Virus record (IMG/VR): IMGVR_UViG_3300032271_000563 | Coordinates: 1-52,850 of that record | Length of the DNA stretch: 52,850 nt | Direction: 5' to 3' (one strand) | Origin: a virus | Taxonomy: Duplodnaviria; Caudoviricetes | Shown here: positions 3,453 through 34,151 of the stretch, piece by piece | Layout: every line of letters starts with the position of its first letter | Numbering within the stretch: position 1 is the first letter of the stretch | Position numbers and translations under genes: made by a program | The notes under the pieces: model-generated | Seen by the model: only the letters and a program-made list of their open reading frames with translations | What the model was told of the DNA's origin: nothing | The model's database searches: none

Positions 3453-3746
3453 ATGGCCAAAACCTTAATCGATACTGTCACAAAAAGAAAACGGACCCCA
3501 GTCGAGCCAAAAGAAGACAAGCTTTACCCAAAACAGAAGATAGTCAGCGCCCAGGGCACAAAGCCACCAGGACCGCCCAAGGCGCCCACCATGGAACAAG
3601 TACAAGACGTAGAGTGGATGAATTGGGTGGAATACGCCCAAAGCCGCATAAGATACCTGGAAAACAAATTGGCATTACAAGCAGATGAAATCGATTATCA
3701 CAAGCAGTCGATAAAACGCCTCAAGAATCGCATCTTGCAGGGATAA
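3453..3746 (+). CDS. hypothetical protein with C-terminal coiled coil
   Basis: GGAG RBS; 97-aa ORF. Confidence 0.65.
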   Translation: MAKTLIDTVTKRKRTPVEPKEDKLYPKQKIVSAQGTKPPGPPKAPTMEQVQDVEWMNWVEYAQSRIRYLENKLALQADEIDYHKQSIKRLKNRILQG

Positions 3747-3798
3747 ACCAAAATAGTTACACTTACTCGCAGTGCATAGGACTTTCGGAGAATAGGGA

Positions 3799-4314
3799 AT
3801 GCCTGACAAAAAGCTGACAACAACGCCGCCTAATAAACGTGGACGGCCATCAACATACACTGAACACATAGCCCAGGTCATATGTGTACGTATAGCTGAA
3901 GGGGAAAGCTTACGTAAGATAGTACTGGATGACAACATGCCCGATAGGGTGACGATTTACCGTTGGTTGTTGGATAAGCCAGATTTCTGCAACCAATACG
4001 CTCGCGCACGTGAAGACCAGGCTGAGACTCACGCTGACGAAATCGTGGACATTGCTGACCAACTGCCGTACCAGATCACTGACAAAGACGGCAACATTCG
4101 GATTGATTCTGCTTACGTACAGTGGCAAAAGAACCGCATAGACGCTCGCAAATGGGTTGCATCCAAGCTCAAGGCCACCAAGTATGGGGACGTGCTCAAA
4201 CACACTGGAGACGCGAATAACCCGCTTGTGGTGGACGTCATGGCCAAAGAGATTGTGACCAGCATGATCAAGAACGTCGAAATGAAACGTCAATTAGCCA
4301 GCAATGCAAGCTGA
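3799..4314 (+). CDS. terS: terminase small subunit (Sf6/P22-like)
   Basis: GRPSTY...ICVRIAEGESLRKI HTH, YARARE, RIDARKWVASKL; precedes terL. Confidence 0.9.
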   Translation: MPDKKLTTTPPNKRGRPSTYTEHIAQVICVRIAEGESLRKIVLDDNMPDRVTIYRWLLDKPDFCNQYARAREDQAETHADEIVDIADQLPYQITDKDGNIRIDSAYVQWQKNRIDARKWVASKLKATKYGDVLKHTGDANNPLVVDVMAKEIVTSMIKNVEMKRQLASNAS

Positions 4315-5740
4315 CATACTAGATGACATTGAGGCCAAACTAAAGGACCCAGAGATCCAGGAGACGCTGTCCAAGCTGGCGCCTGAGGACCTGGCCGCAT
4401 TCCAGTGGCGCATGAACTGGTTAGCAAGCGCTCACGATCACCAGATCGAGCCTACGGGGGAGTGGTGGTCCATATGGGCTGTCATTGCAGGCAGGGGGGC
4501 GGGTAAATCGAGGCTGGCCGCGGAGAATATGGCATGGTGGGCCTGGAGTATCCCTAAGTCACGCTGGCTTGTAGCGGCCCCCACAAGCGCCGACATACGC
4601 GGTACTTGCTTTGAGGGTGAGTCTGGCCTGCTTGCTGTCATCCCTGAAATACTGATCAAAGACTACAACAAAAGTATTAGCCAGATTACGTTGATCAATG
4701 GGTCAATCATTGGCGGCATACCAGCATCTGAGCCCAACAGGTTCAGGGGGCCGCAGTGGCATGGAGCCTGGCTGGATGAGTTGGCCGCATATGACTACAT
4801 CACAGAGACGTGGGACCAGGTGCAGTTTAGCGTCCGTCTGGGCCAGCGCACCAGGATCATAGTCACTACTACCCCCAGGCCAAAAGATTTGATTGTGGAC
4901 CTGATAGGACGGGCTGGTGATGATGTTGCGTTGACAACGGCGTCCACTTACACCAACTTGATGAATTTAAGCCCAAGCTTTAAGAAACAGATTCTTAGCT
5001 ATGAGGGCACCAAGCTGGGACGCCAGGAGATTTATGCGGAGGTGCTGGACCCAGAAGACACTGGCATTATCAAGCGTTCGATGTTCAGGTTGTGGCCGCC
5101 ACACAAAGAGTTCCCCAAGTTCGAGTACATATTAAGTTCCTATGATGTTGCTTTCACGGACAAGACGCAGAACGACGCGACAGCAAATATTGTGTTTGGG
5201 GTGTTCAAGCCCACTGATGGTCCAATGAGCGTGATGGTGATCGACTGCTGGCAAGACCGCTTACAGTATCCTGACCTGCGCCCCAAGGTGATCGAAGAGT
5301 TCGAGGTGGTCTACGGTGAGGGCAAAGACAAGAAGAGGGTTGACTTGATCCTGGTGGAGGACAAAGCCGCGGGTATCAGCCTTATACAGGACTTGCAACG
5401 CGCTCACTTGCCTGTTCGTGGGTACAACCCAGGCCGAGCCGACAAGACGCAACGGTTGAACATTGTGTCCAACATCATTGCCGCAGGACGTGTATGGGTG
5501 CCTGAAAGCTCCAAGAACAAGGGTTACGTGCGTGATTGGGCCGAAGGGATGATAAGCCAGGTGTGTTCATTCCCTGAGTCAGCACACGACGATTACGTGG
5601 ACGCAATGACCCAGGCATTGAGGTACTTGAGGGATTCACACTGGCTGGACATTGATGGGCCCGCACCAGAAGACTATGACGAGGATGATTTGATTGACGC
5701 TGGGATGGTCAAACGTCGCGGTAATCCATACGCTCAATGA
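4304..5740 (+). CDS. terL: terminase large subunit
   Basis: Walker A GRGAGKS, Walker B AWLDE, TTTPRP coupling motif, nuclease SYDVAF and HDDYVDA. Confidence 0.95.
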   Translation: MQADILDDIEAKLKDPEIQETLSKLAPEDLAAFQWRMNWLASAHDHQIEPTGEWWSIWAVIAGRGAGKSRLAAENMAWWAWSIPKSRWLVAAPTSADIRGTCFEGESGLLAVIPEILIKDYNKSISQITLINGSIIGGIPASEPNRFRGPQWHGAWLDELAAYDYITETWDQVQFSVRLGQRTRIIVTTTPRPKDLIVDLIGRAGDDVALTTASTYTNLMNLSPSFKKQILSYEGTKLGRQEIYAEVLDPEDTGIIKRSMFRLWPPHKEFPKFEYILSSYDVAFTDKTQNDATANIVFGVFKPTDGPMSVMVIDCWQDRLQYPDLRPKVIEEFEVVYGEGKDKKRVDLILVEDKAAGISLIQDLQRAHLPVRGYNPGRADKTQRLNIVSNIIAAGRVWVPESSKNKGYVRDWAEGMISQVCSFPESAHDDYVDAMTQALRYLRDSHWLDIDGPAPEDYDEDDLIDAGMVKRRGNPYAQ

Positions 5741-5809: not shown

Positions 5810-8800
5810 ATGCCTGAAGGTTTACTTAGCGGTGTTCTACCCGCCTTATATTCTGCTGGAGACTATGCCAAGCGCCAGGTCAAAAACATTGCCTCTGACC
5901 CATTAGGCGTCATACAGCAGTCTTTGGGGCAAATGACCGATACCCGTAAACGGTTTGATGATTTAGCCCGTATGGCCTACGGTGACCCCAAGAATCCTGC
6001 AAAAGTTACAAACAAAGCCGCGCACGATCTGCTCCAAACAATGGCCACAGAACAAATGCTCAACATGAACATGGGCGTGTCTGGTGTGGTCAAACCACTG
6101 AAAGGTGGCGCCTGGCTGGACAAAACAGTAGATCGCATGATTGATGACATGAGGCCAATGTATTCAATAGACGATAAGTTGTCGTTAGAAAAGCAATTAA
6201 AAGGATACCAAGATTACGTAGAGCAAAATAAAAATTTACCTAATGCTGATTTAACTCATGTTGAGGCAGGAATAAGAGACATTGAAGACTTGCTCAAACG
6301 ACTGCCTGGTTATTCAGCAGTGCATGAATGGTTGAATAAGAACTTGCGTAATTATGTCAAGAATGAGATGGGCACACCTTTTGACCCATTGCGTAAGCAA
6401 GCTGATGAAAAAACTAAGATTCACCTTGAGCCAGATCAATTAGCACACCAACCTTACATTGAGGGTGTTAAGAATAGAAGGGAAGAAGTGGGTATGCCTG
6501 TTGAGGGTATGGCCAAAACCCCTATGGGTAAGTCATGGGAAGATCGTGCTGATTTGCACATTGAAAGTCAACCTGCATCTTATTACCAAAACAAACCATC
6601 GTATGTTGCTGATTTTGGACAATTTGGTTCTAACAAGTTTCATACTGAAGAAGAGGCTAAAAAATCAATTGAAAAATGGCATAAAGCTATTAGTAATTTA
6701 AGTGCAAATGGACCTCTTCGTAAAGTTGTACCAACAATTCAAAGAACAGGGCCCATGGTAGAACACCCATGGCTTGAAAAGAAAGCACCTAATGAACCCA
6801 TTTACAACCTTGATGGTGGACAGGCATTAAACTTCAGGCCAGTTACCGAAACATTGTTAAATGACATATTTGAAGGCAGGTTACCTGCTGAAAGCTTAAA
6901 AAATGTATCTGTGGCTCAAGCAGTGGCCAGGCATTCAGACTATCAAAAGGAGTTGGCCGCACAATTGGCAAAACTTGAGGCGGAGCAACAAAAAAAGAAT
7001 TTATCAGCCAATGTACATAAAAAGTATGATGATGAACATCAATGGATTGAATTGCCCGACACAATGTCATCGGCAGAAAACAAAGAGTTTTGCAAAGGTA
7101 TAGGTAAAACCCTTGGGTTGTGTACCCAGAACGATTGGGCGGCAGAGGACTACGGCAGGCATGACGTTGGTAATCGTTTGTATGCTTTGATTGACAAAGA
7201 AGGTAAGCCCCACGCCCAAATACAAACAAAACATCGTAATTTTAATTTGCGGGACATAGCTCAATTGCCCGCTGAAGATCAGAAATTGATCAATAAGCAG
7301 GTAACAGAATGGGCCCAAAATCAAGACGAGTACCCAACACATAGTCGAGTTGAACGTGCATATTCTGATGCGGCCAAGTCATTAGGGCATCAATTGCCCA
7401 CTGATGTATTGGAAATCAAGCCACCAAGCAATGACTGGAAAGGTCAGTATTCATTAGACCGTGAAGAGAAATACCCAGGGTATCAAGAAAAGTACAAGCC
7501 GTATTTGGATGACTTTGTAAGGTCAGGCAACTATGGGGACGTGGGTGATTTGTACAACACCAATTTGTTTGATCTTAACAATGTGTCAGATTATGCTAAC
7601 AAGTTAAAATCGCATGCAAATAAAGTTGGTTTAAATTTTCCCAGGTTCATTACTAATCAAGAAAGAGATATATTAGGCGAACATTCAATACACCACCAAG
7701 TTGCTGAAGCGGTTAACAATCCAGCAATTAGACCATTTCCTGAAATTCCTGAAGAGCTTAGAAAGTATCAAGTACAACCAGAACCACCCGTACAAGAGTA
7801 CAAAGTAGGCGGAGCAGTACAGCATTTTGATGATGGTGGGGAAGTAACCAGCCAGGACGATTTAAACAAACCATTCTTTGGTAACCCCAACATTCAGCGC
7901 CAGGGTGCCGCGGCAAGAGCCAATGCGGCAGAGCGTTCGCCACTGACCCTGCCTGACCCCAGGACGTATGCGGCGGCCACTACAGCCTTATCAGTGCCTG
8001 TGAACATGGCCAACATGTTTTACGGCGGTGCCCAGTCAGTAGCTAAAAGTATTCCTGAGGCAATTAAGACGGGCCAGCCCCCAGCACCAATTGCGGAAAG
8101 ATTGGCTGAGAAGTATTTCAGTCAAAACCCTGGGATGCAACCCGACACTCCATTGGCTGAAGAATACCAGGGTAACCTTGGTAAAGCTTTAAGCTGGGTG
8201 CCACCTGTTGTAGGTGATTTGATGTTTGCCAGAAACGTGGGGGAAGTATCAAACCCCATGAAGATGATGCTTAAAGACTACATGAAGGCCAACCCGCCAT
8301 CAGTAGGATTAAGCACTAAAAATGTTGGTGAGCCCATTGGAGAGGCAATAGCACCTAAAAAAGTAGGTATCAATGTAAACCAAGACAAAGATAATTTATA
8401 TGCTGACAAAATTATCAGCGGAGAAAAAACATTTGAAACTCGAGATAGCGACTCATTGAGGCCGTATGTTGGTACCAGGGTGCCAATTATTGCCACTGGT
8501 AGTGGACCTGCAAAAGCAATAGGTGAAGTGCATTTGGGTGAGCCAATTAAAGTAACTTCCAAAGAAGAATTTGACAAATATCGAGATCAACATTTGGTGC
8601 CAGAAGGTTCAACTTTCGATATAAAAAAAGGTGGCGAAAAATGGTTGTATCCTGTGAGCCAGCCAATTAGATATGGCACTCCAAAAGATGTAGCTAAATA
8701 TGGCATTGTGGCCAGGGAAGTTTATGGCCATGAAGACGGGCTAAAAGATCAGCCATTAAAAATGGATATGAAATCAGGTGATATTACTCAGCACAACTTG

Positions 8801-11800
8801 TTGACCCAACGCGAAGAACGTCAGATCGCCAACAGCGTTGAATTGACCAAGGATGAGTTAAAGATTATCAAGGAAGGCGCCAAAGCCGCTGGAGTTCCTG
8901 TATCTGAAATAGAAGAACGTGTGCGTCAACATAAGATTGACAACCCATCTGTTGGTGATGACCCCTGGGCACAGCTTGAATTGAGCAGAATTAAACAACT
9001 CAAAGACAAGCCAGGCGAGTATGAGATTGAGTACAAAAACGTCCCATACAGTTATGACCAAGATGCCCAAGGCAAAACGATTAAGCCTGGAACGACGGAG
9101 TATGACACGCACACGACATCATTGGCTGATAAGCTGAAGAATGAAGTGGTGGACATTTACAATCGTTTTAGGGGTGGTGATGAGGCGGCAGGAAACATTA
9201 TTCGCCAGGCTGGCTGGTATAAAGAAATGCGTAGCAGGTTACGCCAAGAGTTTGGGGGCTTGGGTGACTTGTTTGCTGACCTCTTGGGGGCAACATCCCC
9301 GAACACCCCTGTCCGCGAGAACTGGAAAAACGCCGTTGACTTGATCCGCAAGGCCAGCCAGGGTGACTTTGATGCTTTGGTTCCCCAGTGGGAAGATTGG
9401 TATAAGAATGTTGAAACCCAAGAGAAGAAACTAAATTCATTCTTTGCTGGCCAGTTGGCTGAAGGTAAGACCAAGGCGGCAATTAAAAGAATGCCTGAGT
9501 TTGAATCCCAGTATGAAGAACTTAAAAAGGCTAGGGAATTCCCTGATGAACTGTTGCCTTTAAAAGACAGCGGCAAGAAGTATGGGTTCAATGGCCAAAA
9601 CGGTGTTCGCGCATTGTTGGACTTGTTTAGAGTGGTTAAAGATCCAAACGCTGACATTGGTATTGGTACCACAGCGCCCAAGGCCATAACATTTTCTGGC
9701 AACCTTATTGGATTTAAAGACCGAGCAACCATTGACGTGTGGGCGGCTCGATTGCTCCAGCGCTTGGCTGAAAAGATCCGTGTGCCCTCAATGGCAGAAA
9801 CTGGGGTAAGTGGTGCCATGCTCCCAGGCGGGACCACCACGGGCCAATTTGGCATGGGCCAAGACGTGTTTAGAAAAGCTGTGGACCTTATCCGTAAGGA
9901 CCCTGAACTGTCTAAGCTGGATGTGCTCAAAAACATATCAGACGATGACTTACAAGCTTTGATTTGGTTTAAAGAAAAAGAATTGTGGACTAAAAAGAAT
10001 TGGACGTCCGCGGCTGGTGAAGGCGGATCGTTTGAGTTTGAGGCTGACCTTGCAGGTATCAGGGACCAGGCTGAAGTCAACCGTTTGCGTAAACTGATCG
10101 ATACTGGCGTGGCCACCACCAAAAAACAAAAAGAAATGGCACAGGCAGAAATCGAAGACATAGAAGCTCATAGGATGACCCTGAGGTCCTTGATGGAGCA
10201 AGCAGTTGATTCATTGAGCCCCCATGACCAGAAAGCCATGAAGAGCCACATTGATGATTTAAACAAATCAATCACTAGGCAAAAAGCAATTCTTTCTAAG
10301 CCTGATCCTGAAGAGTTGATGCAAACTAAGAAGGGCGCCCAGGAAAAATTAAATAAGATGGTTCGTCCGTTAGAACGTTATCAAGCTGGTTTGTCGCAAC
10401 AATCGCCTGACTTTACGCCTGCTAATGCTGACCAAGCCAGGCTGGCTGATACCATGCAAAAAGCCATTTATGCGGGCGATGACGGCGCTACAGTGATGGC
10501 CAGCAAGAGTATGCCTACCTTGGGCATTTACGGCGCCCCAGAGCATTCTATTGACCTGGAGGCCATTGTTCGCCAGGGATACAACCCAATACCTTTGCTT
10601 AAAGAAATCATTACTGAGGCCCAGGCGGCTAAACAGCACAGCACGTTTTTGTCTAAGGTATTGCGTAATGATGAGCCTGTTGACCCATTGCGTCATAGGC
10701 CAGGGGTTGAGATTTACTTTAGGGAAAAGGGTGATGTCAGCAAAATACAACCAATTCTTGATGACCTGAAAAAAGAAGGCATTCAGTTTTATACTGTGAT
10801 TGTGGATGGCCGTCGTAGTCCAAATGCTTTGGCTGGACAGATTCCACCTGCTGTCGGTGTACGTTTCCAATTGGTGCCTGAGTTTGAGCAGGCATTTGAC
10901 ATCCATGATTGGTCCAAGCTTACTGATGCCCAGATTGCGGCGGAAGTAGACAAGAGGGCCATACAAATGGCTGACCTTGCCGCTACGGTGGCAAAGAAAG
11001 TTCCAGGCGTGAGCAATGCTGGACAATATTGGTACGACACCGAAGTGTTATTTGACCATCAGTATCAGGAGAGATTAAATGAAATTGAAAACTCAAGCAG
11101 AACGCCTGGCGGAAATGCTACCAGCGCTGGAGAGAAAACATGGGGCGGAAAATCCATTCGTGAAGGGGTTAAAGGAGCAATTAGTGGGCCTCCAGAGACA
11201 ACAGGATCGACGGGAACAGTACCAAGTGGGGATGCAAGCACCCCAGCGGTAGACCGCATTAGCATGTCCCACAAGGACGTGACCAAACGAGTTCCTGAAT
11301 TAACCGAGGCCGCATTAAAGGTCCAAGCTGGCTTGATGTCCCGCGCTGAATACAACGACATTGTCAACAAATATAAACCTGTACTGCCGTATACATCAGC
11401 CCCCAAGCCAGCAACTGTTAAACAAATGACCGCGGCATTGTCTGAAGATAAGCGCCCACGTTTACTTGCCCCCAGGAATTTAGAAGAGGGACACAAGGTT
11501 GGCGTAAGGTTGGACATACCATCTTATTCAAACAGCGGCACCTGGATACCTACAATCCATGAGCAAAAGGCTGGGTTCCAGGCTGGGCCAACAATTGGGT
11601 ATGACAACCATTCGCATGTAATGAATGCAGAATTTGGTGTTCAGCCTAAAGCGGCCATCAACTATGCAACGGGCAAAACGGCTAAAAACACGTTTGCTAC
11701 AATCAAAGGCGATTGGCACAAAACAACGCCTGAAAAAGCATTTGCCGACGTGCAAAAACATTTGAACAGTTCTGAATGGACGCAAGTTGGTATGGACCCA

Positions 11801-11968
11801 GAGCGCCATTCATATTTTTATGATAGAAAGACTGGATTGCCTGTGACCCATGCGGATGAGGCCATCCAGGTTGGACCGTTAGTTTTGGCTCGAAATGCAA
11901 AGAACTTATCTAAACCTGGTGATTTTTCTTATAAACGCGGCGGCTTAGTTTCACACAAAGGACATTGA
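5810..11968 (+). CDS. giant multi-domain (polyvalent-type) protein: PcfJ-like, ASCH and HhH-glycosylase-like segments
   Basis: 2052-aa ORF with GAGG RBS; YADKIISGEKTFETR (ASCH); LCTQ...LYALIDKEGKPHAQI (PcfJ-like); ATSP...PK...TIDVWAAR...LQALIW. Confidence 0.75.
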   Translation: MPEGLLSGVLPALYSAGDYAKRQVKNIASDPLGVIQQSLGQMTDTRKRFDDLARMAYGDPKNPAKVTNKAAHDLLQTMATEQMLNMNMGVSGVVKPLKGGAWLDKTVDRMIDDMRPMYSIDDKLSLEKQLKGYQDYVEQNKNLPNADLTHVEAGIRDIEDLLKRLPGYSAVHEWLNKNLRNYVKNEMGTPFDPLRKQADEKTKIHLEPDQLAHQPYIEGVKNRREEVGMPVEGMAKTPMGKSWEDRADLHIESQPASYYQNKPSYVADFGQFGSNKFHTEEEAKKSIEKWHKAISNLSANGPLRKVVPTIQRTGPMVEHPWLEKKAPNEPIYNLDGGQALNFRPVTETLLNDIFEGRLPAESLKNVSVAQAVARHSDYQKELAAQLAKLEAEQQKKNLSANVHKKYDDEHQWIELPDTMSSAENKEFCKGIGKTLGLCTQNDWAAEDYGRHDVGNRLYALIDKEGKPHAQIQTKHRNFNLRDIAQLPAEDQKLINKQVTEWAQNQDEYPTHSRVERAYSDAAKSLGHQLPTDVLEIKPPSNDWKGQYSLDREEKYPGYQEKYKPYLDDFVRSGNYGDVGDLYNTNLFDLNNVSDYANKLKSHANKVGLNFPRFITNQERDILGEHSIHHQVAEAVNNPAIRPFPEIPEELRKYQVQPEPPVQEYKVGGAVQHFDDGGEVTSQDDLNKPFFGNPNIQRQGAAARANAAERSPLTLPDPRTYAAATTALSVPVNMANMFYGGAQSVAKSIPEAIKTGQPPAPIAERLAEKYFSQNPGMQPDTPLAEEYQGNLGKALSWVPPVVGDLMFARNVGEVSNPMKMMLKDYMKANPPSVGLSTKNVGEPIGEAIAPKKVGINVNQDKDNLYADKIISGEKTFETRDSDSLRPYVGTRVPIIATGSGPAKAIGEVHLGEPIKVTSKEEFDKYRDQHLVPEGSTFDIKKGGEKWLYPVSQPIRYGTPKDVAKYGIVAREVYGHEDGLKDQPLKMDMKSGDITQHNLLTQREERQIANSVELTKDELKIIKEGAKAAGVPVSEIEERVRQHKIDNPSVGDDPWAQLELSRIKQLKDKPGEYEIEYKNVPYSYDQDAQGKTIKPGTTEYDTHTTSLADKLKNEVVDIYNRFRGGDEAAGNIIRQAGWYKEMRSRLRQEFGGLGDLFADLLGATSPNTPVRENWKNAVDLIRKASQGDFDALVPQWEDWYKNVETQEKKLNSFFAGQLAEGKTKAAIKRMPEFESQYEELKKAREFPDELLPLKDSGKKYGFNGQNGVRALLDLFRVVKDPNADIGIGTTAPKAITFSGNLIGFKDRATIDVWAARLLQRLAEKIRVPSMAETGVSGAMLPGGTTTGQFGMGQDVFRKAVDLIRKDPELSKLDVLKNISDDDLQALIWFKEKELWTKKNWTSAAGEGGSFEFEADLAGIRDQAEVNRLRKLIDTGVATTKKQKEMAQAEIEDIEAHRMTLRSLMEQAVDSLSPHDQKAMKSHIDDLNKSITRQKAILSKPDPEELMQTKKGAQEKLNKMVRPLERYQAGLSQQSPDFTPANADQARLADTMQKAIYAGDDGATVMASKSMPTLGIYGAPEHSIDLEAIVRQGYNPIPLLKEIITEAQAAKQHSTFLSKVLRNDEPVDPLRHRPGVEIYFREKGDVSKIQPILDDLKKEGIQFYTVIVDGRRSPNALAGQIPPAVGVRFQLVPEFEQAFDIHDWSKLTDAQIAAEVDKRAIQMADLAATVAKKVPGVSNAGQYWYDTEVLFDHQYQERLNEIENSSRTPGGNATSAGEKTWGGKSIREGVKGAISGPPETTGSTGTVPSGDASTPAVDRISMSHKDVTKRVPELTEAALKVQAGLMSRAEYNDIVNKYKPVLPYTSAPKPATVKQMTAALSEDKRPRLLAPRNLEEGHKVGVRLDIPSYSNSGTWIPTIHEQKAGFQAGPTIGYDNHSHVMNAEFGVQPKAAINYATGKTAKNTFATIKGDWHKTTPEKAFADVQKHLNSSEWTQVGMDPERHSYFYDRKTGLPVTHADEAIQVGPLVLARNAKNLSKPGDFSYKRGGLVSHKGH

Positions 11969-12870: not shown

Positions 12871-15453
12871 ATGGCAACAGAAATGCCCATTGAACAGGAT
12901 TATGACCGCCATATTGACGGCATGTCTGAGGAACCAGAAAGCAGTGTCACTGGATTACCTGATGGTGAACTAAACATTGAAGAAATGCCTGATGGTTCAG
13001 CCGTGGTAACCACAGAAGACTTTGAAGGTCCATCGGAAGATGAAGACTTTTACCAAAACTTGGCAGAAGAATTTGATCCATATGACTTGAACAAAGTGTG
13101 TATGCACTACATGGACCTGATCAAAAGCGACAAAATGAGTCGTGAAGACAGGGACAAGCAATATGAAGAAGGATTAAAACGTACTGGATTGGGTAAAGAC
13201 GCACCAGGCGGCGCTAATTTCTTAGGCGCATCTAAAGTGGTTCACCCCATTATGGCGGAGGCATGTGTTGATTTTGCATCCAGGGCAATCAAAGAGTTGT
13301 TTCCCCCAGATGGTCCCACACGCACAAAAATAATTGGTGACGTTGACAAAGACAAAATAGAAGTTGCTGAACGCAAGCGCGACTACATGAACTGGCAGTT
13401 GACCGAGCAAATTGAAGAGTTTAGGGATGAACAAGAGCAGTTGTTAACGCAACTACCCTTGGGTGGTTCTCAATACCTCAAGATGTGGTACGACGATAAC
13501 AAAAAGCGCCCTTGTACTGAATTTGTTCCTATTGACAAAATTTACTTGCCTTATGCCGCGGCAAATTTTTATACGGCACAACGGGTAACTGAAGAAAATA
13601 CCATTACGTCTTATGAGTTTGAAAGCAGGGTTCGTTCTGGTTTGTACCGTGACATTAATTTAATACGTGCCTCTGACCAACCTGAAATGAGTTATGCTGA
13701 AAAGGCAAACGTCAAGATTGAAGGTAAAAAATGGGAAAACAACGATGATGGCGTAAGAAACGTCTATCACGTGTATACCTGGATTGAATTTGATGAAGAC
13801 AAGCGGGCTAAAGGGGAAAGCGCGCCATACATCTTGATGATTGATGAACTCGACATGAAGTGTGTGGGTTTGTACCGTAACTGGGAAGAAGGCGATGACA
13901 CTAGAACAAAGCTTGATTGGCTTATTGAATTCAAGTTTATTCCATGGCGCGGCGCATATGCGATTGGTCTCCCTCATCTCATTGGTGGATTGTCCGCCGC
14001 CCTTACTGGTGCCTTACGTGCATTGTTGGATTCAGCCCATATCAACAATTCAGCCACCATGCTCAAAATCAAGGGCGCCAGAATGTCTGGCCAAACCCAG
14101 CAGGTGGAAGTTACCCAAGTTGCTGAAATAGAAGGCGCACCAGGCGTGGACGATGTCCGCAAAATTGCCATGCCCATGCCATTCAATCCCCCATCACCCG
14201 TGCTATTTCAGCTTCTGGGCTGGATTACAGACGCGGCCAAGGGGGTAGTGACCACCAGCGAAGAAAAGATTGCTGACGCCACAAATAACATGCCTGTGGG
14301 CACTGCCCAAGCTTTGATTGAACAAGGCGCCCATGTTTATTCAGCAATCCACGCTAGGTTGCATGAAAGCCAAGCCAGGGTATTAAAAGTATTGGGTAGA
14401 TTGAATCGCTGGTATTTGGATGACCAAAAACGCGGTGAGTTGGTGGCTGACCTGGACATCAAACGGGAAGACTTCAAACGTAGTACGGACGTTATTCCTG
14501 TTTCTGACCCACACATCTTTTCAGAAACCCAAAGGATGGCGCAAACACAAGCTGTAATGCAAATTATGGCTCAGTATCCCCACGCATTTAACCAGAAAGC
14601 GGTGCTTGAACGGTTCTTAAAACAAATGAAAGTGCCACAAATCAATGAGTTAATGGTCATGGAGCCTGAAGAGGACATGATTGATGTGGCTCAAGAGAAT
14701 GTATTGATGAGTACTGGCCAGCCAGCCAAAGCTTACAAAGAACAAGACCACCTGGCTCACGTGCAAGGACACTTAGATTTCTATCAAAACCCCATTTTTG
14801 GTGGCAAAAACCCATTGGTTATGCCTGCTTTGCTCCAACCCCTGGTCATTCATATCATGCAACACTTTGAAATGTGGTACCAGGCGCGTATGGATGAGTA
14901 CGTTACACAAGCTTTGGGTGAAAAATTGGACTATGACAACGTAAAAATTACCCACAGAATTGACAAGTTGTACGCTTTGGCATCCCAACACGTTGACCAG
15001 GATTCACAGCAGACGTTCTCTAAGATCATGCCTATATTCCAAGACATGATGCAACAGGTACAACAGCTTAAAAAGCAACAACAGCCCCCAATGGACGCTG
15101 ACGCACAAGCATTGGTGCAGACTGCAATGGCAGAAACCCAACGTAAAGCGGCTAAAGACCAAATTGATGGCAAGATGTCCCAAGCTAAGTTGCAGGCGGA
15201 TATTGCCATGGAGCAGGCCCGCTTACAGGCTGACCTGTCATTGGAACAAGCCAAGCTTAAAGCGGATGAAGACCGTTTTGGGGCTGACAAAAACCTTGAA
15301 ATAGCAATGAACGCGGAAAATAATCTTACGCGAGAGCGCATTGAATCAGCAAAGTTGTCGCATGACGCGAGCAAATTGCAACATGAGCAGGTGAAAACTG
15401 CACTGGGACTTGAAAATCAAGCCCAGTCATTCTTAGGAGGCCCAAATGGCTAA
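12871..15453 (+). CDS. portal protein (P22-like) with long C-terminal coiled coil
   Basis: 860 aa; position between terminase and scaffold; HPIMAEAC...ELFP, PVGTAQALIEQG; Q/A-rich tail. Confidence 0.85.
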   Translation: MATEMPIEQDYDRHIDGMSEEPESSVTGLPDGELNIEEMPDGSAVVTTEDFEGPSEDEDFYQNLAEEFDPYDLNKVCMHYMDLIKSDKMSREDRDKQYEEGLKRTGLGKDAPGGANFLGASKVVHPIMAEACVDFASRAIKELFPPDGPTRTKIIGDVDKDKIEVAERKRDYMNWQLTEQIEEFRDEQEQLLTQLPLGGSQYLKMWYDDNKKRPCTEFVPIDKIYLPYAAANFYTAQRVTEENTITSYEFESRVRSGLYRDINLIRASDQPEMSYAEKANVKIEGKKWENNDDGVRNVYHVYTWIEFDEDKRAKGESAPYILMIDELDMKCVGLYRNWEEGDDTRTKLDWLIEFKFIPWRGAYAIGLPHLIGGLSAALTGALRALLDSAHINNSATMLKIKGARMSGQTQQVEVTQVAEIEGAPGVDDVRKIAMPMPFNPPSPVLFQLLGWITDAAKGVVTTSEEKIADATNNMPVGTAQALIEQGAHVYSAIHARLHESQARVLKVLGRLNRWYLDDQKRGELVADLDIKREDFKRSTDVIPVSDPHIFSETQRMAQTQAVMQIMAQYPHAFNQKAVLERFLKQMKVPQINELMVMEPEEDMIDVAQENVLMSTGQPAKAYKEQDHLAHVQGHLDFYQNPIFGGKNPLVMPALLQPLVIHIMQHFEMWYQARMDEYVTQALGEKLDYDNVKITHRIDKLYALASQHVDQDSQQTFSKIMPIFQDMMQQVQQLKKQQQPPMDADAQALVQTAMAETQRKAAKDQIDGKMSQAKLQADIAMEQARLQADLSLEQAKLKADEDRFGADKNLEIAMNAENNLTRERIESAKLSHDASKLQHEQVKTALGLENQAQSFLGGPNG

Positions 15454-18291: not shown

Positions 18292-19206
18292 ATGGCCGCA
18301 CCAATGCGAAGTACGGACTTTAGATCAATCGTTGAACCAATTCTTAATGAATGTTTTGATGGTGTCTATGATCTCCGCGAAGACGAATGGTCACGTGTTT
18401 TCCGTGAATCAGAGGGTATCCCCCGTAACTACCACGAAGAGCCCGTCCTTTATGGATTTGGCGCCGCACCTCAATTGCCTGATGGAACACCAGTGTCCTA
18501 TCAGCAAGGTGGTGTACTCTTCCTCCAACGCTACATTTACAATGTATATGGCCTGGCCTTTGCGTTGACAAAAGTGTTGGTTGAAGACGGTGACCATATT
18601 CGTATCGGTCAAGTGTATGCTCGACATCTCGCCCAATCATTGATTGAGACTAAAGAAACACTCTGTGCAAATATTTTGAACAGAGCATTCAATAGTTCTT
18701 ATGTTGGTGGTGACGGCGTATCGTTGATCAACACTGCTCACCCAATCGTGAGTGGATCTTTCAGCAACCAATTGACTACAGCCGCTGTTTTGTCTCAAAC
18801 ATCTCTCGAACAGATGTTGATTCAAGTCCGTCAAGCTGTGGACAACAACGGTAAGAAAATTCGTTTGGTTCCCCGCCAATTGGTGGTGGCTCCAGGCAAC
18901 ATTTTCCAAGCTGAAGTGTTGTTGAAATCAGTATTGCGTACTGGAACCGCAAACAATGACTTGAACCCTGTTAAGTCAATTGGTTTGTTGGATGAAGGCG
19001 CCGCAATCTTGTCACGTTTGACATCATCCACTGCATGGTGGGTTCAAACTGATGCGCCTGAAGGCATGAAGCTTTTGATGCGTAGACGTTTGGAGAAAAC
19101 CATGGAAGGTGACTTCGAGACTGACAGTATGCGTTACAAAGCAACGGAGCGTTACATCCCAGGATGGACAGATCCCCGCGCATTGTTCGGTACACCAGGC
19201 GCTTAA
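18292..19206 (+). CDS. major capsid protein (Mu gpT-like HK97 fold)
   Basis: GFGAAP, GGDGVSL...AHP, PRQLVVAP, RYKATERY...WTDPRALFG; followed by terminator. Confidence 0.85.
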   Translation: MAAPMRSTDFRSIVEPILNECFDGVYDLREDEWSRVFRESEGIPRNYHEEPVLYGFGAAPQLPDGTPVSYQQGGVLFLQRYIYNVYGLAFALTKVLVEDGDHIRIGQVYARHLAQSLIETKETLCANILNRAFNSSYVGGDGVSLINTAHPIVSGSFSNQLTTAAVLSQTSLEQMLIQVRQAVDNNGKKIRLVPRQLVVAPGNIFQAEVLLKSVLRTGTANNDLNPVKSIGLLDEGAAILSRLTSSTAWWVQTDAPEGMKLLMRRRLEKTMEGDFETDSMRYKATERYIPGWTDPRALFGTPGA

Positions 19207-20538: not shown

Positions 20539-21888
20539 ATGGGACAATTTAAACCAATGGTAAAAATGGAAACAACTGAACCATCAGTTGAGTTAAAACT
20601 CAAAAAAGGTGGTCATGTTTCCATGAAAAAAGGTAAGAAAAGCGATAGTGGTCATCACATGATGGACGGCGGCATTATGAATGCCTTGTCTTCACCACGT
20701 CGCTCTATGGGTATGCCTCCAACTATGATGGGCGCCGCTCCTGCACGTCCTGCCATGGCTTTGCGTCGTAAGGCTATGGCGGCAATGCCAACACCTATGA
20801 TGAAAAAAGGTGGTGAGATGGAGTCCAAGCATGACCAGATGATGGAAGACAAGCGGATGTCCAAGCTTGAGGCTGAATTGAAAAAGCATGAAAAAATGCC
20901 TGCTCATTTAGCTCACAAAGGTATGGCATCAGGTGGTTCATCTGATGAGCGCATGAAAAATTTGGCAAAAGCCCGTGAGGCACTTCAAAAGTGTAAAGAA
21001 GGTGGTGGTATGCATCACTTAGACAAGTGCGAAATGCATTTGGCTAAATGTGGCGGTGGTTCCATGAAGAAAATGGCCACTGGCGGTGCTACTGGCAAAA
21101 ATCTTGATGCATTTGAAACCAAAACTACCGTAAAAGGCAATGTTAAGCCTTTTGAAAAAACTGAAATGCATACTGCCAAGAAAGATAGTGCTCATGGTAC
21201 TGGCGGAGTCAAAGAAGGTAATGGTGGTGGTTACAAAAAAGGTGGTTCAATTAATTCTGAAACATCTTACGGTGACTACGCTACTACCAAAGTTGACCAG
21301 GCTAAGCCTGATTCAGCACACGGTACTGGTGGCGTTTCTATGTCCAATGCTGGTGGTTTTAAAAAGGGTGGAAAAGCCAAATATAAAACTGGTGGTGGAG
21401 TAGAAAAGTACGCTGTTGATAATGTTGAGGGAACTCCTAAAGGCGTGACCAATACAACAACTGGTGAAGTCAAAGAGTCCAATGGTGGTGGTTACAAGAA
21501 AGGCGGTGCTTTAAAAAAGCATTTCGCCACGGGGGGCAGTGTTAATCGCACTGGTCACGCCGTGGTAATGCCCCAAGCAAGTAAGCCCGCATCTAAAGCA
21601 ACAGAAATCAATATGTTATCTGGTGTTTTTAAAAAGGGCGGTCACGTAAAAAAGTTTGATGGCGGTGGTTCAACTGGTGACAAGATCATTGATCAAGAAA
21701 ACCAGAAAAGACTAAATGAATTAAATACTACCAAGTATGAAAATCAACACCCATTTAAGACAATGTTTAACAATGTTAAAGAGTTTGTAATGGGGCCGCC
21801 TACAACTCCCGCGGGGAGCGTTACCAAGACTAAAGAGTCAGTCACGGTAGCACCACAAAAAAAAAGTGGTGGTAGTATCAAGCGTTAA
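20539..21888 (+). CDS. basic repeat protein with about 14 hydrophobic-x-x-GG motifs; putative -1 frameshift isoforms
   Basis: AGGAG RBS; LKKGG, MKKGG, YKKGG, FKKGG, FATGG etc.; in-frame A-AAA-AAG at 21513 and 21648. Confidence 0.8.
   Translation: MGQFKPMVKMETTEPSVELKLKKGGHVSMKKGKKSDSGHHMMDGGIMNALSSPRRSMGMPPTMMGAAPARPAMALRRKAMAAMPTPMMKKGGEMESKHDQMMEDKRMSKLEAELKKHEKMPAHLAHKGMASGGSSDERMKNLAKAREALQKCKEGGGMHHLDKCEMHLAKCGGGSMKKMATGGATGKNLDAFETKTTVKGNVKPFEKTEMHTAKKDSAHGTGGVKEGNGGGYKKGGSINSETSYGDYATTKVDQAKPDSAHGTGGVSMSNAGGFKKGGKAKYKTGGGVEKYAVDNVEGTPKGVTNTTTGEVKESNGGGYKKGGALKKHFATGGSVNRTGHAVVMPQASKPASKATEINMLSGVFKKGGHVKKFDGGGSTGDKIIDQENQKRLNELNTTKYENQHPFKTMFNNVKEFVMGPPTTPAGSVTKTKESVTVAPQKKSGGSIKR
21513..21566 (+). 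other. putative programmed -1 ribosomal frameshift signal
   Basis: A-AAA-AAG in frame, 6-nt spacer, stem GCCACGG/CCGTGGT with inner CAGTG/CACTG. Confidence 0.7.
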
Positions 21889-33456: not shown

Positions 33457-33651
33457 ATGACTGACACTGAAAAAGACTTAGCTGTCCACGTTGCAGTCTG
33501 TGATGAGCGTTACCGCAACATTGAGGAATCACTGAAAAGCGGAGAAAGGCGCATGACCAAGATTGAGTATTTGATCTATGCTGTAATGGTAATGGTTATG
33601 TTTGGCCCAGGCGTTGCGGCGCAATTCTTTCATAAATTCTTTGGAATCTAA
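33457..33651 (+). CDS. small coiled-coil plus TM protein (holin/antiholin-like)
   Basis: HVAVCDERYRNI coil then one hydrophobic helix; starts the lysis cluster. Confidence 0.55.
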   Translation: MTDTEKDLAVHVAVCDERYRNIEESLKSGERRMTKIEYLIYAVMVMVMFGPGVAAQFFHKFFGI

Positions 33652-34151
33652 TGGACCCAATCACTATTTTTGCGGCGTGTAAAGCGGCTCACGCAGGGAT
33701 TCGTGAGTGCATTGATCTTTACCAGGATTTTAAAAAAGACGGCAAAGATGTTGGTGACATTGTTGGTGACATTGGTAAAAATTTAGGTTCGTTCTTTACG
33801 CATCAAGAATCGTTTAAAGAGGCTGAAAAAGAGGCTAAAAATAATCCTTTGCCTAAAAATGTCAGTGTCAATGAAGAGGCAATGAATAGAATTTTGCGTC
33901 AACAACAAATTAGTCGCATGGAAATTGAATTGCGTGAAATGATCATTTACCAAATTGGTATGCCTGGTCTTTGGACTGAATTTGTACAAATGAGGGAAGT
34001 GGTTAAAAAAGAGCGCGAAAAAGTCGAGCGTGAACAAAAAAAGCACGTGAAGACGCCGCTTATAAAAGGCGTCAATTTATTGCCAAATGGGAATTTCGGG
34101 CGGCAATTTGTGTTGCAGTTTTTGCGTGGGTCATGGTCTTTAGCGTACTGA
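33651..34151 (+). CDS. lysis-region protein; -1 frameshift form would extend to 34195 with a TM helix
   Basis: MDPITIFAACKAA start; A-AAA-AAG at 34037-34043 plus hairpin. Confidence 0.7.
   Translation: MDPITIFAACKAAHAGIRECIDLYQDFKKDGKDVGDIVGDIGKNLGSFFTHQESFKEAEKEAKNNPLPKNVSVNEEAMNRILRQQQISRMEIELREMIIYQIGMPGLWTEFVQMREVVKKEREKVEREQKKHVKTPLIKGVNLLPNGNFGRQFVLQFLRGSWSLAY
34037..34073 (+). other. putative programmed -1 ribosomal frameshift signal
   Basis: in-frame A-AAA-AAG, 8-nt spacer, GACGCC/GGCGTC stem; -1 frame open to TAA 34193-34195. Confidence 0.7.

Follow-up and report, generated by a model that had tools for sequence, protein, structure and literature searches.

A candidate dnaX-type -1 ribosomal frameshift cassette conserved in a head-module gene of uncultured freshwater phages

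The locus and its gene

The window analyzed here (the whole stretch of 52,850 nucleotides) comes from an uncultured freshwater phage, and the relatives of this phage constitute an abundant family of uncultured freshwater phages. No tRNA genes are encoded in the window. The gene order around the site of interest is a capsid gene (18292..19206), a gene for a protein of 415 amino acids, and then the gene in which the putative frameshift lies (20539..21888), hereafter the frameshift gene. The features of this gene are listed below. The heptamer, the 6-nt spacer, the stem-loop and the peptides read in the two frames (KKHFATGGSV in frame 0 and AFRHGGQC-stop in frame -1) are all located where an earlier, sequence-only reading of the window had placed them.

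20539..21888, plus strand: 0-frame open reading frame of 449 codons (449 aa, 47.5 kDa, pI 9.9 [9.86])
21513..21519, plus strand: slippery heptamer A_AAA_AAG (codons TT-A AAA AAG, Lys326-Lys327)
21519..21545, plus strand: predicted -1 tail, GCA TTT CGC CAC GGG GGG CAG TGT TAA (AFRHGGQC-stop)
21520..21525, plus strand: 6-nt spacer CATTTC between heptamer and stem
21520..21885, plus strand: 0-frame codons 328-449, the 122 residues present in the long product only
21526..21566, plus strand: putative 41-nt stimulatory stem-loop (closed hairpin, -22.6 kcal/mol), with outer helix GCCACGG/CCGTGGT (21526-21532 with 21560-21566) and inner helix CAGTGT/GCACTG
21648..21654, plus strand: second in-phase A_AAA_AAG (GTA AAA AAG TTT GAT; in the -1 frame Val, then TGA)

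The translated open reading frame (ORF) consists of 14.9% Lys and 14.7% Gly and carries GG[YF]KKGG and HGTGG repeats, which are also visible in alignments of its homologues. The AlphaFold2 model, built from a 55-sequence alignment, is mostly disordered (mean pLDDT 49, pTM 0.27); its sole confident part consists of helices at about residues 97-171, and the repeat region (177-336) falls below 50 pLDDT. The 449-aa product is most likely a basic, mostly disordered protein of the head module. No family was assigned to it in Pfam-A (E<=0.01) or PHROG, and searches of PHROGs, Pfam and the ESM Atlas with the 449-aa protein returned unnamed viral clusters only. The protein family is large, with at least 4847 proteins at E<=1e-5 among the 8000 candidates scored. 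Functional names are absent among the 120 relatives listed, a "translation initiation factor 1" label on one listed relative being regarded as spurious, and the single relative in the public phage genome collection, MW202545.1, is annotated as "hypothetical protein". We found no published description of a frameshift in this phage gene.

In frame 0 the sequence around the heptamer reads GCT TTA AAA AAG CAT TTC GCC ACG GGG GGC AGT GTT AAT, and A_AAA_AAG sits in the X_XXY_YYZ phase of the ORF; with the preceding GCT, T_TTA_AAA can also be read at 21510-21516. The string AAAAAAG occurs 31 times on the two strands of the window, as compared to 22 +/- 5 expected (6 of 100 shuffles reach 31), and in-phase A_AAA_AAG occurs at 4 sites in the 44 plus-strand ORFs (15,709 codons), 2 of them in the frameshift gene. 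Seven of the 31 copies fall inside this Lys-rich gene, which also encodes many KK dipeptides, and both features lend some weight to the view that the site is a chance by-product, i.e., that the coding of a conserved Lys/Gly-rich peptide produced a heptamer and a G/C-rich palindrome by accident, both of which were then spread by common descent. On its own, the window provides only suggestive evidence for a heptamer beyond chance; it is the conservation in relatives that lifts the site above that level.

Conservation of the heptamer in homologous genes

Homologues were taken as distinct ORFs from viral and metagenome contigs, of which 189 are complete: 108 in a first set and 81 in a second set that samples more distant relatives, both sets resting on the best 80 loci per scan out of several hundred. 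Clustering of these 189 ORFs yields 73 groups at 80% identity, 36 at 70% and 12 at 60%, and since the sequences are related to one another, the raw counts given here overstate the number of independent events. In the first set (108 distinct ORFs), 104 of the 107 sites that match KK[HA][FY]AxGG carry an in-phase heptamer, which is A_AAA_AAG in 84 and A_AAA_AAA in 20. The three exceptions (L033 copy 2, L042 and L045), as well as two ORFs that lack a match to this expression (L054 and L163), have the heptamer at a neighboring or duplicated motif instead, in each case with its own hairpin and early -1 stop; upon duplication of the motif the heptamer and hairpin relocate jointly. The heptamer is present in all 81 complete distinct ORFs of the second set, in 24 of them as A_AAA_AAA, and the two ORFs without it are fragments at contig ends.

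As a check, the sequence-only reading had proposed looking for homologues in which synonymous substitutions disrupt the heptamer and the stem. The homologues collected here point the opposite way: an in-phase A_AAA_AAR is kept at the equivalent motif in 189 of 189, the rare codons are frozen, and the changes in the stem are compensatory. The codon preceding the heptamer is NNA in every one of the 189 and specifies seven amino acids (GCA 53, TCA 23, TTA 12, GTA 9, ACA 5 and CCA 2 in the first set; GCA 27, ACA 27, TCA 14, GTA 4, ATA 3, TTA 3 and CCA 3 in the second). The baseline for NNA is about 20%, with 16-24% of the codons for these amino acids being NNA in the remainder of the genes. Other KK dipeptides in these genes form a heptamer in 56 of 858 cases. 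In the 5' arm of the stem, Thr is encoded by ACG in 96 of 101 (95%, baseline 6.8%), the first Gly by GGG in 84 of 104 (81%, baseline 2.2%) and Ala by GCC in 85 of 104 (baseline 25%), and synonymous diversity dips at codons 325-331. The KKHFATGG peptide motif is itself highly conserved, a point in favor of a chance by-product, and the nucleotide conservation is thus partly a protein constraint; the choice of GGG, ACG and NNA codons, on the other hand, opposes the usage of these very genes and is not accounted for by a conserved peptide that merely happens to spell the signal.

The putative stimulatory hairpin

RNAfold assigned to 21520-21570 a minimum free energy of -23.4 kcal/mol, with a z of -3.80; 1 shuffle in 200 did equally well. 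As a discriminator, hairpin free energy was tried and rejected: the median of the cassettes is -25.8 kcal/mol versus -18.1 kcal/mol at random in-gene positions, and 25% of random in-gene controls reach the cassette median when a liberal hairpin finder is used. Folds of the first-set homologues have a 5' arm that begins 6 nt past the heptamer, and the two arms have changed together, as exemplified by the 5'/3' arm pairs GCCACGGG/CCCGTGGC, GCTACGGG/CCCGTAGC, GCGACGGG/CCCGTCGC and GCCACAGG/CCTGTGGC, which are compensatory types drawn from all 108 first-set sites. The same 5' arm is paired always, in some lineages with a 3' arm at a distance of about 41 nt and in others with one at about 75 nt. 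All 27 aligned short-hairpin relatives (27 of 35 sequences were re-aligned) have the outer helix paired, 6 of them with a CG<->UA exchange, and all 31 long-hairpin relatives have a paired 8-bp equivalent, which includes two compensatory positions; the rows of these alignments were pre-selected by an arm search (8/8 pairs in A3, at least 7/8 in A4), so that pairing of 100% is partly by construction. When the partners are slid, at most 54% of the cells are paired, and the covariation score of the outer helix is reached by 0 of 500 shuffles. The inner helix occurs in two registers and is no single homologous helix. The mixed short-hairpin alignment (A2) contains three relocated cassettes and a 3-nt loop indel that were out of register, and RNAalifold gave a poor consensus for this reason. 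The curated frameshift elements in Rfam include the DnaX element; a cmscan of 21300-21800 against Rfam (E<=10) returned three chance-level matches, none of them at the cassette.

That random positions in these genes often fold well would suit a chance origin of the palindrome. Chance leaves no reason, however, for stem changes to be compensatory, nor for a replacement cassette to be present upstream where the heptamer has been lost, and together with the contrary codon usage these observations make a chance by-product scarcely credible. The comparisons of homologous sequences establish instead that the putative frameshift signal is under strong selection, both at synonymous sites and at base pairs, across a large phage family.

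An upstream Shine-Dalgarno-like element in some relatives

The ORFs of the first set differ in the linker that precedes the heptamer, and a Shine-Dalgarno (SD)-like element in this family comes and goes with linker length. Of the 63 ORFs with a three-residue linker, 52 have GGAGG at a distance of 9 nt upstream of the heptamer, as compared to 0 of the 45 with a two-residue linker; the window is among the latter and reads GGC GGT upstream of its heptamer, with no GGAGG. As background, 1.1% of the other [KRH]GG sites are encoded by GGA-GGN, and 148,845 nt from elsewhere hold 47 copies of GGAGG. The spacing at which such elements stimulate -1 shifts is given as 9-14 nt in the relevant section of the Atkins 2016 review (PMC5009743). 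The SD-like element has the character of an enhancer and not of an obligatory part of the -1 cassette.

A conserved hairpin structure would also be expected if hairpin and A-run served some other purpose at the RNA level without productive frameshifting, such as a pause for co-translational assembly, a site for an RNase or an RNA-binding protein, or the control of mRNA stability, and hairpins can indeed pause ribosomes. A role of this kind would have no need for an A at the end of the preceding codon in all homologues, would require neither the X_XXY_YYZ phase nor a 6-nt spacer nor GGAGG at 9 nt, and would leave the joint relocation of heptamer and hairpin in duplicated motifs unexplained; we consider it improbable.

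A different source for a shortened product would be slippage of RNA polymerase on the A-run. Runs of seven A (A_AAA_AAA) are found in the 20 first-set and 24 second-set ORFs already mentioned, and the dnaX gene of Thermus relies on transcriptional slippage, as noted in the review (PMC5009743). The run in the window consists of six A followed by G, whereas the bacterial cases described in that part of the review involve runs of 9 A or T (PMC5009743). A hairpin spaced by 6 nt and an SD-like sequence 9 nt away are, moreover, elements that stimulate slippage by the ribosome. Contigs from two RNA-library runs and two DNA runs were also compared (gaps in the cover of the RNA runs carry no meaning). 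These contigs are free of indels, though rare variants would be missed and frameshifting would leave no trace in them; they include one RNA-library contig that covers 21257-21678, which is no proof of transcription. Polymerase slippage is, on balance, very unlikely to be the origin of a shortened form, and slippage by the ribosome is the reading that we adopt.

The two predicted products

The predicted -1 product has 335 aa (35.3 kDa), with TAA at 21543-21545 after eight codons. A -1 stop within 2-9 codons occurs in 108 of 108 first-set ORFs, and also at 57.6% of random positions; the early stop was rejected as evidence, since the -1 frame of these genes is rich in stops everywhere. Many of the -1 tails are merely VC, SC, RAS or ALRHGR before the stop. 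The part that is present only in the long product measures 41-265 residues in relatives (median 123) and holds a conserved MPQ..KP.S...LSG[TV]FKKGG segment and a C-terminal motif, PAGSVTKT..SVTV.P.KK.GGS.K., and alignments A1 and A5 of the homologues have invariant and near-invariant columns past residue 327. This region is conserved as protein, which makes both products plausible. The earlier proposal of a Gly-Gly "tag" under selection in both frames is not supported by the family: GG is found in just 108 of the 189 -1 tails and is absent from 29 of the 73 clusters at 80% identity. Where it does occur in the -1 tail, it is there because of the G-run in the 5' arm of the stem (0-frame ACG GGG GGN).

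Proposed mechanism and comparison with known systems

Taken together, the conserved features very probably identify the site as a dnaX-type cassette for programmed -1 ribosomal frameshifting in a phage head-module gene, and conservation in relatives thus supports the original suggestion that a classic bacterial -1 signal adds a 335-aa isoform to the 449-aa protein. Ribosomes decoding Lys326-Lys327 (AAA AAG) would meet the 41-nt hairpin 6 nt downstream, and in a fraction of them the two tRNA-Lys would slip back by one base onto AAA AAA. After the slip, translation would run through the eight -1 codons (AFRHGGQC) to the TAA at 21543-21545, such that one mRNA would give rise to two proteins with a common first 327 residues, one of 449 aa and one of 335 aa, the latter without the conserved 122-residue C-terminal part. 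From the pattern of sequence conservation, we infer that slipping does occur, and our guess for its efficiency, by analogy with dnaX and CsoS2, is 10-50%. By further analogy with CsoS2A/B and tau/gamma, the phage may need a fixed ratio of the two forms during capsid assembly or DNA packaging, in which case the long form would bear a C-terminal attachment module that the short form would lack.

The IS3-family (IS911) transposase likewise combines A_AAA_AAG with a structure on its 3' side; in that case the outcome is an OrfAB fusion instead of a truncation and the genetic context is different; the frameshift structure of IS911 is mentioned in the review (PMC5009743). As described in the same source, E. 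coli dnaX (tau/gamma) resembles the phage site in its A_AAA_AAG heptamer, its 3' stem-loop and an early -1 stop that yields a C-terminally truncated product, and its SD-like element has a counterpart at stimulatory distance in about half of the phage relatives, the window not being one of them (PMC5009743). Unlike dnaX, to which it is unrelated, the phage gene encodes a head-module protein without a Pfam or Rfam match, and its -1 tail in the window has 8 codons as compared to one codon in dnaX.

Another system that invites comparison is CsoS2 (CsoS2A/CsoS2B) of alpha-carboxysomes, a protein described as repetitive and intrinsically disordered and as acting together with an icosahedral shell (PMC11481516), in which a -1 frameshift in the repeat region leads to a short isoform without the C-terminal shell-binding part (PMC11481516; PMC5009743). 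The phage protein is similarly basic (pI 9.9), repetitive and mostly disordered, is encoded near a capsid gene, and has its cassette at the end of the repeat region. No sequence relationship to CsoS2 was detected (no Pfam family at E<=0.01), and the resemblance would be one of functional analogy. The CsoS2 site also differs from the phage cassette in its more complex 3' structure and, in the review's account of it, the lack of an SD-like element (PMC5009743). Within phages, -1 shifts in structural modules also set a fixed ratio between two related products in the tail assembly chaperone G/GT (PMC10885494) and in T7 gene 10A/10B, the latter mentioned in the review (PMC5009743). Both G/GT and 10A/10B extend into a long -1 ORF, which for the chaperone overlaps and lies upstream of the tape-measure gene, whereas at the site described here a stop is reached in the -1 frame after 8 codons and the outcome is a shorter protein. 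No match to a tail chaperone or capsid family was found for the frameshift gene, which lies two genes past the capsid gene.

To our knowledge, truncating, dnaX-style -1 frameshifts are rare, and the programmed frameshifts known to us in tailed phages are confined almost entirely to tail assembly chaperones and a small number of capsid genes, in which the product is lengthened. All three of the classical bacterial stimulators are present within the one phage family considered here, in a gene that carries no annotation anywhere. The natural variation recorded for these cassettes, which includes two hairpin architectures built on one 5' arm and cassettes that have relocated after duplication of the motif, makes the family well suited to work on the evolution of recoding signals. 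With respect to phage biology, the findings suggest that head assembly involves a disordered protein in two isoforms, which would be reminiscent of CsoS2 in carboxysomes, and with respect to annotation, the genes of this family should list a second, frameshift-derived product.

A second heptamer and the terminal cysteines

The second in-phase heptamer of the gene, at 21648-21654, has no compact hairpin in the window. At the equivalent spot in relatives, V-K-K is encoded by GTA AAA AAG in 38 of 41 distinct ORFs, GTA accounting for 18% of Val codons. This sequence pattern makes it possible that 21648-21654 is a weaker, facultative second shift site, from which a form of about 372 aa would result.

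A Cys at the C-terminus is shared more often than GG, though not universally. Of the 189 ORFs, 145 have a -1 tail with Cys as its last residue, as compared to 9.8% of all -1 stops in these genes that are preceded by Cys, and 121 encode a full-length protein with a terminal Cys, the median Cys content of these proteins being only 1-2. Two or more distinct 0-frame contexts give rise to the codon for the tail Cys, and each of the three stop codons is represented directly after it. No Cys-ended tail is found in 23 of the 73 clusters at 80% identity, the C-terminal residue of the long form encoded in the window is Arg, and the T that creates the TGT codon of the tail is, in short-hairpin lineages, also part of the inner stem. 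We offer only tentatively, and with considerable doubt, the idea that selection keeps a Cys at the C-terminus of the -1 product, mirroring that of the full-length protein, and that the heptamer at 21648 adds a third isoform in part of the family. If so, both isoforms would share a reactive end that could serve, for example, in a disulfide or other covalent linkage or in metal binding inside the capsid.

The gene and its relatives

The gene that carries the slippery site (ORF 20539..21888) lies near the capsid gene of a 52,850-base viral record that is estimated to be 94% complete and whose long ORFs are nearly all on the + strand. Its surroundings are as follows:

4304..5740, terminase
12871..15453, portal
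18292..19206, major capsid protein (Pfam Phage_capsid_4)
between the major capsid protein gene and ORF 20539..21888, a 415-aa Thr/Gly/Ala-rich protein
farther 3', a protein called "tail adaptor" in the annotation of MW202545.1, then tail-fibre-like proteins

A 2052-aa ORF between terminase and portal (5810-11968) has just two weak PHROG matches, both to families of unknown function. The 449-aa protein itself matches no Pfam or PHROG family; it has a pI of 9.86, 14.9% Lys and 14.7% Gly, carries the repeated motifs GG[YF]KKGG and HGTGG, and is predicted by AlphaFold2 to be mostly disordered (mean pLDDT 49), with confident helices only at about residues 97-171. Of 8000 scored candidates, 4847 belong to its family at E<=1e-5; no functional name occurs among the matches listed. 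A single relative, in MW202545.1 (42% identity), is present in the public phage genome collection, annotated as a plain single CDS for a "hypothetical protein".

Relatives were collected by scanning contigs for the best 80 of 287 relatives (viral) and the best 80 of 207 (metagenome), and the 170 loci used, together with the window, gave a first set of 108 distinct ORF nucleotide sequences (103 distinct proteins with a median pairwise identity of 53%, in 43 clusters at 80% identity). A second sampling, seeded with the two most divergent members (loci L163 and L054), added 83 more distinct ORFs. Family members are about 276 to 584 aa long and vary in the number of repeat units and in insertions of His-rich tracts (HHKHH, HEHHKHMAKHH; loci L010/L033, L011/L062, L042 and others).

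The site in the window

21508-21569, site sequence, GCT TTA AAA AAG CAT TTC GCC ACG GGG GGC AGT GTT AAT CGC ACT GGT CAC GCC GTG GTA
21513-21519, + strand, heptamer A_AAA_AAG in the canonical X_XXY_YYZ phase within ORF 20539..21888
21526-21566, closed stem-loop, beginning 6 nt 3' of the heptamer
21543-21545, -1 frame stop TAA, ending the tail AFRHGGQC

Each structural detail of the sequence-only reading was confirmed at these positions: the in-phase heptamer, the 6-nt spacer, the stem-loop, the readings of both frames (KKHFATGGSV in the 0 frame) and the -1 stop. The predicted -1 product has 335 aa (35.3 kDa) and the 0-frame product 449 aa (47.5 kDa). When 21520-21570 is folded, RNAfold assigns the hairpin an energy of -23.4 kcal/mol (z = -3.80), and 1 of 200 shuffles does as well. 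T_TTA_AAA is also present at 21510-21516, so that the window and other relatives with GCT TTA have overlapping slippery heptamers (T_TTA_AAA_AAG).

On the window's own evidence, the site is only weakly beyond chance. Both strands together have 31 copies of AAAAAAG as against 22 +/- 5 expected; 31 is reached by 6 of 100 shuffles, and seven of the copies fall within the Lys-rich ORF 20539..21888. The 44 plus-strand ORFs (15,709 codons) contain four in-phase A_AAA_AAG sites, at 6991, 21513, 21648 and 34037, among which the 60-nt downstream fold is strongest at 21513 (-24.0, versus -6.4, -10.2 and -15.3 at the other three).

Conservation of the heptamer and of codon choice

Of the 107 KK[HA][FY]AxGG sites of the first set, 104 have an in-phase heptamer, either A_AAA_AAG (84) or A_AAA_AAA (20). 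The three exceptions, copy 2 in locus L033 (TCT AAG AAA) and the sites in loci L042 and L045 (AGT AAG AAG), are each the downstream copy of a duplicated KK..A.GG motif whose upstream copy reads KKAFADGG or KKGLAKGG:

L033 (=L010), 3745-3811
L042, 3628-3694
L045, 650-716

In the upstream copies A_AAA_AAA is followed, after a 6-nt spacer, by a strong hairpin of other sequence (GCTGACGGGGG.../...CCCCCGTTGGC or GCTAAGGGGGG.../...CCCCTCTTGGC), and the -1 frame stops 3 codons on. The downstream copies have neither heptamer nor hairpin; since both elements are found upstream and both are lost downstream, the cassette has moved as a unit. L054 and L163, which the motif expression missed, have the heptamer at SKKAVDG and AKKFAEGG. 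It is present in 81 of 81 complete ORFs of the second set (the 2 ORFs that lack it are fragments cut at contig ends). The sequence-only reading had looked to conservation in homologues, and the heptamer is found in 189 of 189 distinct complete ORFs. These form 73, 36 and 12 clusters at 80%, 70% and 60% identity, none of which lacks it.

The codon preceding Lys-Lys specifies seven different amino acids and has A as its third base every time (GCA 53, TCA 23, TTA 12, GTA 9, ACA 5 and CCA 2 in the first set; GCA 27, ACA 27, TCA 14, GTA 4, ATA 3, TTA 3 and CCA 3 in the second), as compared to 16-24% NNA for those amino acids elsewhere in the same genes. Just 56 of 858 other KK dipeptides in these genes are encoded as an in-phase heptamer. 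Within the 5' arm of the hairpin, ACG encodes Thr in 96/101 (6.8% elsewhere), GGG the first Gly in 84/104 (2.2% elsewhere) and GCC Ala in 85/104 (25% elsewhere); pairwise synonymous diversity is 0.07-0.36 at codons 325-331 and about 0.5 in the flanks. That the site arose through chance or codon bias is scarcely credible, being contradicted by its NNA, ACG, GGG and GCC codons when these are set against the usage of the same genes.

The hairpin

In folds of 83 distinct cassette sequences the stem begins 6 nt 3' of the heptamer, and a search for complementary arms at the 108 first-set sites found 8/8 or 7/8 complementarity at 107. The arm pairs include GCCACGGG/CCCGTGGC, GCTACGGG/CCCGTAGC (17 sequences), GCGACGGG/CCCGTCGC (1) and GCCACAGG/CCTGTGGC (5), together with GU intermediates. 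Two architectures exist, a hairpin of about 41 nt, which is the window's type, and one spanning about 75 nt, where the same 5' arm pairs with a more distant 3' arm and an internal hairpin lies between them.

The stem is likewise conserved in homologues, with compensatory exchanges: the 8-bp outer helix of the long-form hairpin is paired in 31/31 sequences (CG<->UA in 4, GC<->AU in 4) and the 7-bp outer helix of the short form in 27/27 (CG<->UA in 6), figures of 100% that are partly by construction because the rows were chosen by the arm search (8/8 pairs for the long set, at least 7/8 for the short). Seven sequences were excluded at this selection, and a second short-form alignment excluded 8/35 more, of which three have a relocated cassette and five a loop that is shorter by 3 nt. 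The covariation and slid-partner controls are not by construction; in the 31 long-form sequences 98.3% of cells are paired, versus at most 50.9% with slid partners, and the covariation score was reached by 0 of 500 shuffles. The inner helix of the short form has two registers.

Hairpin stability alone does not discriminate the cassette from controls. A liberal hairpin finder gave a cassette median of -25.8 kcal/mol versus -18.1 at 125 random in-gene positions, 25% of which were at least as stable as the cassette median. An early -1 stop is uninformative as well, because 57.6% of 46,051 background positions stop within 9 codons.

An upstream Shine-Dalgarno-like element and the mechanism

A GG dipeptide lies directly 5' of the site. 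Where the linker has three residues (GG-x-x-x-KK), the dipeptide is encoded by GGA GGN in 52 of 63 ORFs, which places GGAGG 9 nt 5' of the heptamer, and 3 more have GGGGG; with a two-residue linker, which would put GGAGG too close to the heptamer, it occurs in 0 of 45 ORFs, the window included. The baseline is GGA-GGN at 1.1% of 917 other [KRH]GG sites and GGAGG 47 times in 148,845 nt elsewhere. Internal Shine-Dalgarno sequences are described as stimulating -1 shifts at 9-14 nt spacing (Atkins et al. 2016, PMC5009743), and dnaX as 50% efficient on A_AAA_AAG (PMC5009743). That the element is present only where its distance from the heptamer is suitable favours a ribosomal mechanism in particular.

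Transcriptional slippage on the A-run is very improbable: it is unlikely with six or seven A, and the matching contigs, including an RNA-library contig across 21257-21678, have no inserted or deleted bases, although rare variants may escape contigs. That RNA-library contig has the loop variant of locus L013, with pairing kept. Some other RNA role of the hairpin and A-run, without productive shifting, is unlikely too, as it leaves unexplained the NNA rule, the phase, the Shine-Dalgarno-like spacing and the move of the heptamer together with its hairpin. The site is very probably a dnaX-type -1 programmed ribosomal frameshift, which would yield a truncated isoform beside the full-length protein. 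Sequence comparison establishes that there is a signal and that selection acts on it, and to this extent the proposal of a -1 isoform made alongside the 449-aa protein stands; the slipping, its efficiency and its purpose we infer. Judged by its sequence, the cassette is real and strongly conserved; it adds a case from a phage protein family that lacks annotation to the dnaX-type -1 frameshifts already known. Open-access papers and preprints searched in full text gave frameshifting reviews and tools and phage tail-chaperone cases, and no account of the site or its protein family.

The two predicted products

The sequence-only reading regarded Gly-Gly as a functional tag encoded in both frames. 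The -1 tail has GG in 78/108 first-set and 30/81 second-set ORFs, and in 29 of 73 clusters (80% identity) no member has it; GG in the tail is an automatic consequence of 0-frame ACG GGG GGN. Neither a tag selected in both frames nor dual GG coding across homologues is supported. The tail ends in Cys in 145/189 ORFs, the baseline being 9.8% of 5590 -1 stops in these genes. The Cys comes from at least two 0-frame contexts: NNT GTT AAY/GAY yields TGT TAA or TGA, as in the window (21540-21545), and TTT or TAT, with GCT and then GAN, AGG or AAN after it, yields TGC TGA, TAG or TAA. Cys-ended tails precede all three stop codons. Full-length proteins end in Cys in 121/189, with a median Cys content of 1-2. 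A Cys-ended tail is absent from 23/73 clusters (80% identity), and Arg is the last residue of the window's long form.

The C-terminal part that the short form would lack is conserved and spans 41 to 265 residues in relatives (median 123), the smallest ending ...LSGTFKKGGxV. The closest functional analogue of the putative two-isoform protein is CsoS2 of alpha-carboxysomes, described as a disordered repeat protein in which a -1 frameshift within the repeats gives CsoS2A, without the shell-binding C-terminus (PMC11481516, PMC5009743). This analogy leads us to propose that head assembly or DNA packaging might involve a fixed ratio between a long form that is attached and a short form that is free. 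Neither dnaX nor CsoS2 has sequence homology to the phage gene, and no Rfam model matched at the cassette.

Other slippery sites and contig depth

21648-21654, second in-phase A_AAA_AAG in ORF 20539..21888, GTA AAA AAG TTT GAT; -1 frame Val, then TGA
34037-34043, in-phase A_AAA_AAG in ORF 33651..34151 (166 aa, function unknown), two genes 5' of the endolysin

The first of these could serve as an additional, facultative shift site. Relatives with V-K-K at this spot use GTA AAA AAG in 38/41 distinct ORFs (GTA is 18% of Val codons), and a subfamily resembling locus L227 has a small hairpin 5 nt downstream; KK is missing in many relatives, and the 0-frame ORFs of some naturally stop here, ending ...FKKGGRV. 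At 34037, the 60-nt downstream fold is -15.3 kcal/mol and the -1 frame is open for 50 codons, until just before the next ORF (34196), with 38 codons remaining in the 0 frame; a shift would extend the product.

Summed contig depth in two lake metagenome runs has an about ten-fold peak over the cassette, at 21484-21573 (153-183 and 66-134, versus 10-25 elsewhere in the gene), with loose contig ends at 21513, 21545 and 21577. The peak suggests that many co-occurring relatives have contigs whose match to the window is confined to the cassette stretch.
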